A stretch of DNA of 25,251 nucleotides from a virus (IMGVR_UViG_3300035698_028775), one strand, 5' to 3'. Shown: positions 13,916-14,449, counted from the first letter of the stretch. A program made the numbers and translations. Notes: generated by a model from the letters alone, not told the origin.

Positions 13916-14449
13916 TCAATAACTATTACCACACTTTTCACAACATCCATAAAATTCAAATTTGAATAATTCTTTAGCCCATTTTAGCATCAAATCTAAA
14001 TCTTCAAATTGCTGAATTCCATACCTATTACATACAATATCCACGTTTCCCTTTCTCCAAAATCCATCAGGACAACAAACAACCATCCTGTGCGTCGACC
14101 TTCTCCTCGTATCTCTCACTGGCACACGTCGCCCAAACAGTCCCAACTCCAGTAACGAAATTGGCGACTGAGTATTCGATTCAAAATACATTATTATCAA
14201 ATCTGCACATTCCATCGCCTCAAGTTCCCATTCCACCTGTTCCCTGAAGACAGGGTTATCTATCGTCTGCTCCCAAGAAGAATCCCACACATCCCTTCTC
14301 GGATTTAAAATAATAACATTCTCACCCTCAAATACTCTTTCTGCCTCCTTTTGCCAATCAACTGCCCTTCCCATTTCAATGCTCCCAGCAAGAAAAATAG
14401 AAAATGATTCTCCAATATCCAAAACTTCTGGCGGTTTTATTACTCTCAT
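13916..14449 (-). CDS. nucleoside 2-deoxyribosyltransferase-like (NDT/DNPH1 fold) protein with C-terminal Cys cluster
   Basis: IFLAGSIEMG...W...NVIILNPRRD...EQVEWELEAMECADLIIMYFESNTQSPISLLELGLFG matches the NDT-family pattern (YLAG, conserved Glu in LELG); C-terminus CCPDG...C...CCEKCG. Confidence 0.6.
   Translation of the reverse strand: MRVIKPPEVLDIGESFSIFLAGSIEMGRAVDWQKEAERVFEGENVIILNPRRDVWDSSWEQTIDNPVFREQVEWELEAMECADLIIMYFESNTQSPISLLELGLFGRRVPVRDTRRRSTHRMVVCCPDGFWRKGNVDIVCNRYGIQQFEDLDLMLKWAKELFKFEFYGCCEKCGNSY

Follow-up and report, generated by a model that had tools for sequence, protein, structure and literature searches.

The gene described here lies in a 25,251-nucleotide stretch of viral DNA (IMGVR_UViG_3300035698_028775), which was analysed over its whole length and is called the window below. 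The window is AT-rich (37% GC), and the long open reading frames (ORFs) around the gene are essentially all on the minus strand. The gene itself, a member of the PF15891 (Nuc_deoxyri_tr2) family, is an ATG-to-TGA ORF of 177 aa on the minus strand (13916..14449). A GGTGA motif resembling a Shine-Dalgarno ribosome-binding site was read from the sequence at 14455..14459 (minus strand); it is located 5 nt before the ATG at 14449 and shares bases with the TGA that ends the preceding ORF. The next gene downstream encodes a homologue of MVP.

In a Pfam profile search the protein scored 105.4 bits with PF15891 (gathering cut-off 30, E = 2.4e-30; the match covers positions 2-94 of the 105 in the profile), and it also matched phrog_30579, a family of unknown function, with E = 1.2e-48. 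The first-pass annotation had named PF15891 and PF05014, the classical nucleoside 2-deoxyribosyltransferase (NDT) family, as the profiles to be checked; PF05014 gave no match at E ≤ 1, and a few homologues carry a precomputed PF05014 co-match. There was no match to the DUF4062 or TIR profiles of Pfam, no defence-system model of PADLOC was matched, and nothing meaningful was found in NCBIfam. Among PDB sequences the only match was 4MCJ (E = 3.9e-24, residues 15-157), which was also the one match of the family profile.

The database contains at least 7,990 relatives, and nearly all of the 120 that were listed consist of a single domain, are 145-170 aa long and come from metagenomes and a wide range of bacterial phyla. 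An identical protein is encoded on two further short contigs from different samples (L002 and L003). The closest distinct relative, P0001 from locus L001, is 78% identical, all others 60% or less. Comparison with the L001 orthologue yielded a ratio of nonsynonymous to synonymous substitution rates (dN/dS) of 0.18, which indicates purifying selection. The PF15891 gene is real, intact and selected. There is nothing unusual in it as a gene call, since it adds one member to a very large and widespread family without characterised biochemistry.

A family alignment of 22 sequences, with the window protein as the first, was used to define conserved positions and was also the basis of an AlphaFold2 model (mean pLDDT 86.9). 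Taken together, profile, sequence and structure evidence show that the protein has a Rossmann-like fold of the NDT/DNPH1 type (DrHyd), structurally similar to TIR domains, and that this fold matches the solved structure of the family, 4MCJ. Both the fold and the relation to TIR had been proposed in the first-pass annotation and are borne out. The characteristic segments are IFLAGSIEMG in the loop of strand 1 (residues 18-27), previously described as a YLAG-type N-terminus, which it is not, NPRR (residues 49-52), EQVEWEL (residues 70-76), SPISLLELG (residues 95-103), and VVCCPDGFWRKGNVDIVC (residues 123-140). The family motifs FLAGSIEMG, NPRR..W..SW.Q, EQV.WEL, SPI.LLE.G and VCCP.GFWRKGNVD.VC.RY are all present. 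The alignment has 41 invariant columns, all of which the window protein holds by definition, being the first sequence. Invariant or nearly invariant are F19, L20, G22, S23, I24, E25, G27, W32, Q33, N49, P50, R51, R52, W55, W59 and Q61 in the N-terminal half, Q71, W74, E75, Y88, T93, P96, E101 and G103 in the middle, and C125, C126, P127, G129, W131, R132, K133, G134, N135, D137, C140 and Y143 in the C-terminal part. The basic residues R51, R52, R132 and K133 are invariant, as are many aromatic ones, which suggests that the substrate is a nucleotide.

Characterised relatives of the NDT/DNPH1 type cleave or exchange the N-glycosidic bond of nucleosides or nucleotides by means of a glutamate in the helix that follows strand 3. 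The conserved glutamate which had been noticed in LLELG is E101, invariant in the alignment. The model has strand 84-88 followed by helix 99-106, and E101 is in the opening part of this helix, at a position that may correspond to that of the GYELG glutamate in DNPH1; PDB entry 8qhq has glutamine instead (GYQLG), and we read it as a catalytic-site mutant of DNPH1. The position and invariance of E101 point to a catalytic role. Alignment by hhalign of the family alignment with human DNPH1 covered the strand-1 loop only (probability 1.8%), and BLOSUM62 alignments, whether local or global, had the two sequences out of register, with E104 of DNPH1 opposite E25.

The window protein has seven cysteines, and the added C-terminal cysteine cluster that had been reported for it is in part a family feature: C125 and C126 (VVCCP) and C140 (VDIVC) are invariant or nearly so in the whole family and are aligned to 4MCJ as well, and the added ones are C169, C170 and C173 (CCEKC, residues 169-173), located in a C-terminal tail (residues 158-177, FKFEFYGCCEKCGNSY). 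A second peculiarity is an Arg-rich loop insertion of 14 residues at about positions 107-120 (RVPVRDTRRRSTHR). Within the alignment the loop and the tail are common only to the window protein and P0001, and both are modelled with low confidence (pLDDT around 60 for the loop and below 50 for the tail). A zinc-binding role of the cysteine cluster was considered and dropped, since three of the cysteines belong to the family core, the tail contributes only CC..C, and its pLDDT is below 50. Two other PF15891 genes (L320:716-1510 and L321:1131-1739) have different, unrelated Cys/His-rich C-terminal extensions (e.g. ...HKCGHCGLFQEWCRCKKLSY) and no MVP gene nearby; judged from these sequences, tails resembling zinc knuckles appear to recur sporadically in the family. 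Small proteins with cysteine motifs are common in the window phage. Upstream of the PF15891 gene there is a run of small ORFs without family match (14455-17009, minus strand), many of which carry CxxC-type motifs (e.g. YGCPYCG at the end of an 81-aa ORF, CKSCGYPEDICIC and CKECGSHYKGRCLLC); three ORFs of this run are conserved in L001.

The gene neighbourhoods of the PF15891 and MVP families were compared by building profiles for both and scanning six-frame ORFs of fetched loci. The sets comprised 80 viral PF15891 loci (± 6 kb; L086-L165), 80 metagenome PF15891 loci (up to 6 kb), and 82 viral (L004-L085) and 80 bacterial-genome MVP loci (± 8 kb). Clustering of the neighbours at the viral PF15891 loci revealed a strong association with genes of NAD+ metabolism. 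An approximately 490-aa NAPRTase-family protein (Nampt/Namat; PF04095; phrog_448, "nicotinamide phosphoribosyl transferase") was encoded at 30 of the 80 loci, always on the same strand and within 1.5 kb in 24 of them. Prs/Adps-like genes (PF00156/PF14572; phrog_619) were present at 24 loci and Poa1p-like macro proteins at 21 (phrog_335; matching PDB 6lfq, an ADP-ribose 1''-phosphate phosphatase, and other macrodomain entries), followed by cREC (13 loci), NMNAT-Nudix (7 loci) and Nudix (7 loci). Typical gene orders were Prs-NAPRT-PF15891-macro, NMNAT/Nudix...macro-PF15891-NAPRT and cREC-Prs-PF15891-macro...NAPRT. When the viral loci were collapsed at 70% PF15891 identity, the NAPRT neighbour was retained in 14 of 49 lineages. 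The same neighbour was found at 15 of the 80 metagenome PF15891 loci, an independent sample; in the control sets it was found at 3/82 viral and 0/80 bacterial MVP loci.

These gene sets correspond to NAD+ reconstitution operons of phages. NARP1 consists of Adps and Namat, and NARP2 of Nampt and Nmnat (bioRxiv 10.1101/2024.02.11.579819); in NARP1-AP the macro phosphatase Adpp is added to NARP1 operons (bioRxiv 10.64898/2026.01.28.702374). Neither of these two papers mentions a deoxyribosyltransferase-like gene. PF15891 is a frequent, so far undescribed companion of NARP1, NARP1-AP and NARP2 operons, as exemplified by the NARP-like loci L089:3265-6914 and L135:5086-8509, in which a PF15891 gene is embedded.

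Two further loci independently connect the family to ADP-ribose chemistry. In Aquimarina litoralis (WEKL01000004.1; L246:4209-11550) PF15891 is contained in an NAD+/ADP-ribose-processing island with the gene order NrtR (NUDIX+WHD_NrtR), Prs, PF15891, NADAR, DUF4291, DUF1152, Macro, KptA (PTS_2-RNA), 2OG-Fe(II) oxygenase and metallophosphatase. In Tunturiibacter phage Tunturi_5 the 1262-aa product of gp225 (PP885688.1, 163409-167197; L339:110-3898), whose gene adjoins the portal gene, is a fusion of PF15891 (residues 16-115) and an ART-PolyVal ADP-ribosyltransferase domain (residues 207-380); it is annotated as a MutT/NUDIX hydrolase, and no NUDIX domain was found in it at E ≤ 0.01. Annotated records of the jumbo phages RsoM2USA, BUDD, Bambus and vB_EliS-L02 added little, as the neighbours were mostly hypothetical genes.

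In the window, the PF15891 gene directly precedes the MVP gene, as had been stated before. The MVP homologue was recognized by the PF11978 shoulder domain (E = 6.6e-29) and by Vault_3, and shares 40-44% identity with hundreds of MVPs from prokaryotes, which are 815-845 aa long. The spacer between the PF15891 stop codon (TGA, 13918-13916) and the MVP ATG (13887) is 28 nt long (13888..13915, minus strand) and includes a GGAAGG ribosome-binding site at 13900-13895; a consensus scan of the spacer detected no promoter-like or terminator-like site. Two nt after the MVP stop there is a strong hairpin resembling an intrinsic terminator (11309..11328, minus strand; 8 bp, 5 of them GC), formed by AAGGGAGC..GCTCCCTT and followed by a T-run (TATTTTTTTT); it scores on both strands. 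It is likely the end of the transcription unit. The PF15891 and MVP genes had been assigned to the same polycistron, and with a spacer lacking such sites and a strong hairpin right after MVP, it is plausible, judging by these signals, that they are co-transcribed as the last two genes of one unit. In L001 the PF15891 stop codon overlaps the MVP start. Scanning the window with Rfam and for tRNAs gave no match, so that no element resembling vault RNA or Y RNA was detected.

The MVP frame is broken by 1 nt at 13672-13678. The first piece of 71 codons (13672..13887, minus strand; MEKDSRDIILAPNEY...APEGW) ends with TGG TAG TGA, and the main piece of 782 codons (11330..13678, minus strand), which contains the vault repeat and shoulder domains and reads GTG GTA GTG at this point, is in the -1 frame relative to the first. 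The MVP of L001 is unbroken at the same site (PEGWYVILLNP); the window, L002 and L003, the latter two from other samples, each lack one base of the Tyr codon. The dN/dS values relative to L001 (0.16 for the first piece and 0.08 for the main piece) indicate purifying selection on both. The break might reflect a genuinely split gene, a frameshift of recent origin or recoding. Programmed -1 frameshifting was considered as an explanation; the site, GAA GGG TGG TAG, is no canonical slippery heptamer.

The first-pass annotation had taken the adjacency of the two genes as a sign of a functional link, and had suggested that conservation of the neighbour at orthologous MVP loci be checked. It is not conserved. 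A PF15891 gene was found at one of the 82 viral MVP loci (L037, one gene beyond MVP on the downstream side) and at one of the 80 bacterial ones (L240, 4 kb upstream), no MVP gene was found near PF15891 at any of the 80 viral PF15891 loci, and among the 80 metagenome PF15891 loci the only contigs with MVP were the window's own and that of L037. The PF15891 proteins of L037 and L240 are without the loop and the tail, and their genes do not directly adjoin MVP. Elsewhere direct adjacency occurs only in L001, whose gene order matches that of the window across five genes or more. The adjacency is thus a trait of one phage lineage, for which common descent is a sufficient explanation. A direct link to MVP is conceivable but unsupported.

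A looser connection is nevertheless apparent, because both families recur in phage islands of NAD+/ADP-ribose and RNA-repair genes; it is the proposed direct link that fails the synteny check. At the 82 viral MVP loci, for which the counts stand without a random-locus control, the recurrent neighbours were AAA_33 polynucleotide-kinase-like genes (21 loci), RlaP (16 loci), DUF2828+DUF7788, usually just upstream of MVP (15 loci), RNA ligase (15 loci), metallophosphoesterases, cREC (9 loci, in eight of them at most 1.4 kb downstream) and NADAR (9 loci). A few loci have the order MVP-Prs-NAPRT-macro or NMNAT/Nudix-MVP-Prs-NAPRT-macro (L035, L038); L072:4363-5889 and L012 are further examples of viral MVP loci. 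Bacterial-genome MVP loci have nearly none of these RNA-repair and NAD+ neighbours. These observations provide a lead that phage MVP genes reside in islands of RNA-repair and NAD+/ADP-ribose genes. A link between bacterial MVP and RNA repair is credited to Burroughs & Aravind 2016 in a passage of PMC13404743.

The window fits this pattern. It encodes an archaeal-type NMNAT (NMN adenylyltransferase; 3923-4453, E = 6e-35 to MJ0541/1f9a), a Pnkp-kinase-like P-loop protein (6553-7176) and a 396-aa protein (9379-10569; phrog_19425) in which a phosphopantetheine-adenylyltransferase-like domain is fused to a phosphohydrolase, all on the minus strand, the same strand as MVP, and downstream of it beyond the terminator. 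Other recognizable ORFs on the minus strand are a Cas12f1-like/TnpB TNB-domain ORF at the window edge (24866-25243, E = 3e-16), an HNH endonuclease (1534-2469) and a radical SAM protein (19595-20461).

The explanation that we consider best, with a probability of roughly 0.55, is that the PF15891 protein is an N-glycosidase acting on the NAD+/ADP-ribose pool, where it would assist NAD+ reconstitution or the processing of ADP-ribose, and that its adjacency to MVP reflects co-residence in an island. The enzyme would cleave or exchange, in an E101-dependent reaction, the N-glycosidic bond of a phosphorylated ribosyl compound, which to judge from gene context would most likely come from the NAD+/ADP-ribose pool. 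An unusable NAD+-derived product, such as an N-linked or cyclic ADP-ribose species, might be converted to ADP-ribose, in parallel to the way in which the Poa1p-like macro phosphatase Adpp feeds NARP1; alternatively, nicotinamide might be released or a signal destroyed. PF15891 accompanies NARP1-type as well as NARP2-type gene sets, which makes it likely that its reaction yields something that both can use, or removes something that both need to be rid of. The PF15891 and MVP genes would then stand side by side as residents of an NAD+/ADP-ribose/RNA-repair island of large phages, inherited within the lineage, and on the best reading this shared residence is a more economical reason for the one-off placement than a dedicated two-gene system.

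Several observations weigh against the NAD+/ADP-ribose assignment. The literature on PF15891, Nuc_deoxyri_tr2 and 4MCJ yielded no measured activity for any member, so that the substrate is a guess, and equating E101 with the NDT/DNPH1 nucleophile draws on fold position without a significant in-register residue alignment. More than half of the viral PF15891 loci have no NAD+ gene within 6 kb. Within the window itself no NAPRT (Nampt/Namat) or PRS (Prs/Adps) profile was matched, and the NMNAT gene is 9.5 kb from the PF15891 gene, beyond a terminator. Many bacterial members are found in housekeeping contexts (next to genes for an aminoacyl-tRNA synthetase, HSP20 or L31), which fit general nucleotide salvage as well as an NAD+-specific role.

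In one alternative, the phage MVP shell would have the PF15891 protein as its dedicated partner or cargo. The enzyme would process NAD+ or ADP-ribose at or inside the particle, like the TIR-like NADase of TEP1 and PARP4 in eukaryotic vaults, and be docked through the Arg-rich loop, the tail or both. The short terminator-free spacer, the shared end of the transcription unit, the overlap of stop and start in L001 and the purifying selection on both genes are in keeping with this, and so is the restriction of the loop and the FEFYGCC.KCG tail to the two MVP-adjacent proteins among the 22 aligned. Eukaryotic vaults are reported to contain a TIR-like NADase and to bind ADP-ribose in their shoulder (bioRxiv 10.64898/2026.05.01.722283), ADP-ribose-processing genes appear enriched at phage MVP loci, and encapsulin cargo genes located just upstream of the shell gene offer an analogy. 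However, 160 of 162 other MVP loci and all 80 viral PF15891 loci lack the adjacency, in the two exceptions (L037 and L240) the gene does not directly adjoin MVP and its product has neither loop nor tail, and L001 is simply collinear with the window. Cysteine-rich tails also occur in PF15891 genes without MVP nearby, tail and loop are the low-confidence parts of the model, and the MVP frame is broken in the window phage. We therefore regard a dedicated partnership as unlikely. Its more specific form, in which the enzyme would reside as cargo in a vault-like MVP compartment, docked by the tail or the Arg-rich loop and acting on NAD+/ADP-ribose species, is drawn by analogy and appears more doubtful still; if true, it would be a minimal prokaryotic-virus counterpart of the eukaryotic TEP1 NADase/PARP4-MVP arrangement.

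Similarly improbable is a DNPH1-like dNMP N-hydrolase, which would remove a canonical or modified deoxynucleotide in the service of nucleotide-pool control or DNA hypermodification, the latter a use of this fold in phages to which the first-pass annotation had drawn attention. The basic residues are compatible with a 5'-phosphate, and the window has a radical SAM gene and a methyltransferase-like gene, but these lie 5-8 kb upstream, separated from the PF15891 gene by roughly a dozen ORFs, and sequence similarity to DNPH1 is not significant. The neighbourhoods of PF15891 genes lend hypermodification no support: the annotated recurrent neighbour clusters of the 80 viral loci, in which NAD+ genes dominate, include no nucleotide-modifying or thymidylate-synthase-type gene. 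Least probable, with only a slight chance of being right, is a non-catalytic binder acting as a sponge or sensor for ADP-ribose-derived immune signals like inactive domains of the TIR/SLOG class: the TIR-DrHyd-SLOG class does include sensor versions (PMC9503650) and small standalone proteins in phage counter-defence-type islands would suit the role, but E101, E25 and all the polar and basic motifs stay invariant among proteins of phages, Cyanobacteria and Bacteroidota that are 55-60% identical, a pattern typical of enzymes whose small substrate is fixed, and the family also occurs in bacterial housekeeping contexts.

Comparison with known systems helps to place the N-glycosidase interpretation. 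4MCJ (BDI_0649 of Parabacteroides distasonis, 'putative nucleoside deoxyribosyltransferase') belongs to the same family, PF15891, and the window protein differs from it by the 14-residue Arg-rich loop insertion and the 20-residue tail with CCEKC; having no assigned function, 4MCJ gives the family, not the reaction. Similarity to classical NDTs (PF05014; 1F8X, 7O62), DNPH1/Rcl and MilB N-hydrolases is undetectable at the sequence level by hidden Markov models (HMM) or hhalign, the PF15891 invariant set NPRR, W55, W59, WRKGN and CC is absent from NDT and DNPH1, and the gene context of PF15891 points to NAD+/ADP-ribose rather than to deoxynucleosides. With the TIR-like NADase DUF4062 (NIR) of TEP1 and bacterial Swarozyc the protein shares the broad TIR-DrHyd-SLOG class and a catalytic glutamate, which in the window protein is predicted. 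It belongs, however, to another family and is a standalone protein of 177 aa without NACHT, WD40 or TROVE domains. TEP1 resides inside the MVP shell, whereas the window gene is encoded beside MVP, in an association that is not conserved outside one phage lineage. In gene context there is a likeness to the NARP accessory genes (Adps, Namat and Adpp of NARP1-AP, Nampt and Nmnat of NARP2): at 30 of 80 viral loci PF15891 is inside or beside such an operon, frequently with Prs/Adps-like, macro and Nampt/Namat-like genes as its immediate neighbours on both sides; unlike them, it is no described component of any NARP pathway.

NARP operons defeat NAD+-depleting bacterial immunity, and the link to PF15891 provides a concrete place to look for the substrate of the family. 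The association with NARP genes and the fusion to an ART domain are probably a more useful lead than the adjacency to MVP. At the same time, the presence of phage MVP in NAD+/ADP-ribose/RNA-repair islands, seen together with the vault reports of 2026, suggests that the connection between vaults and NAD+ may be old, and the window offers a convenient pair of enzyme and MVP for probing it.
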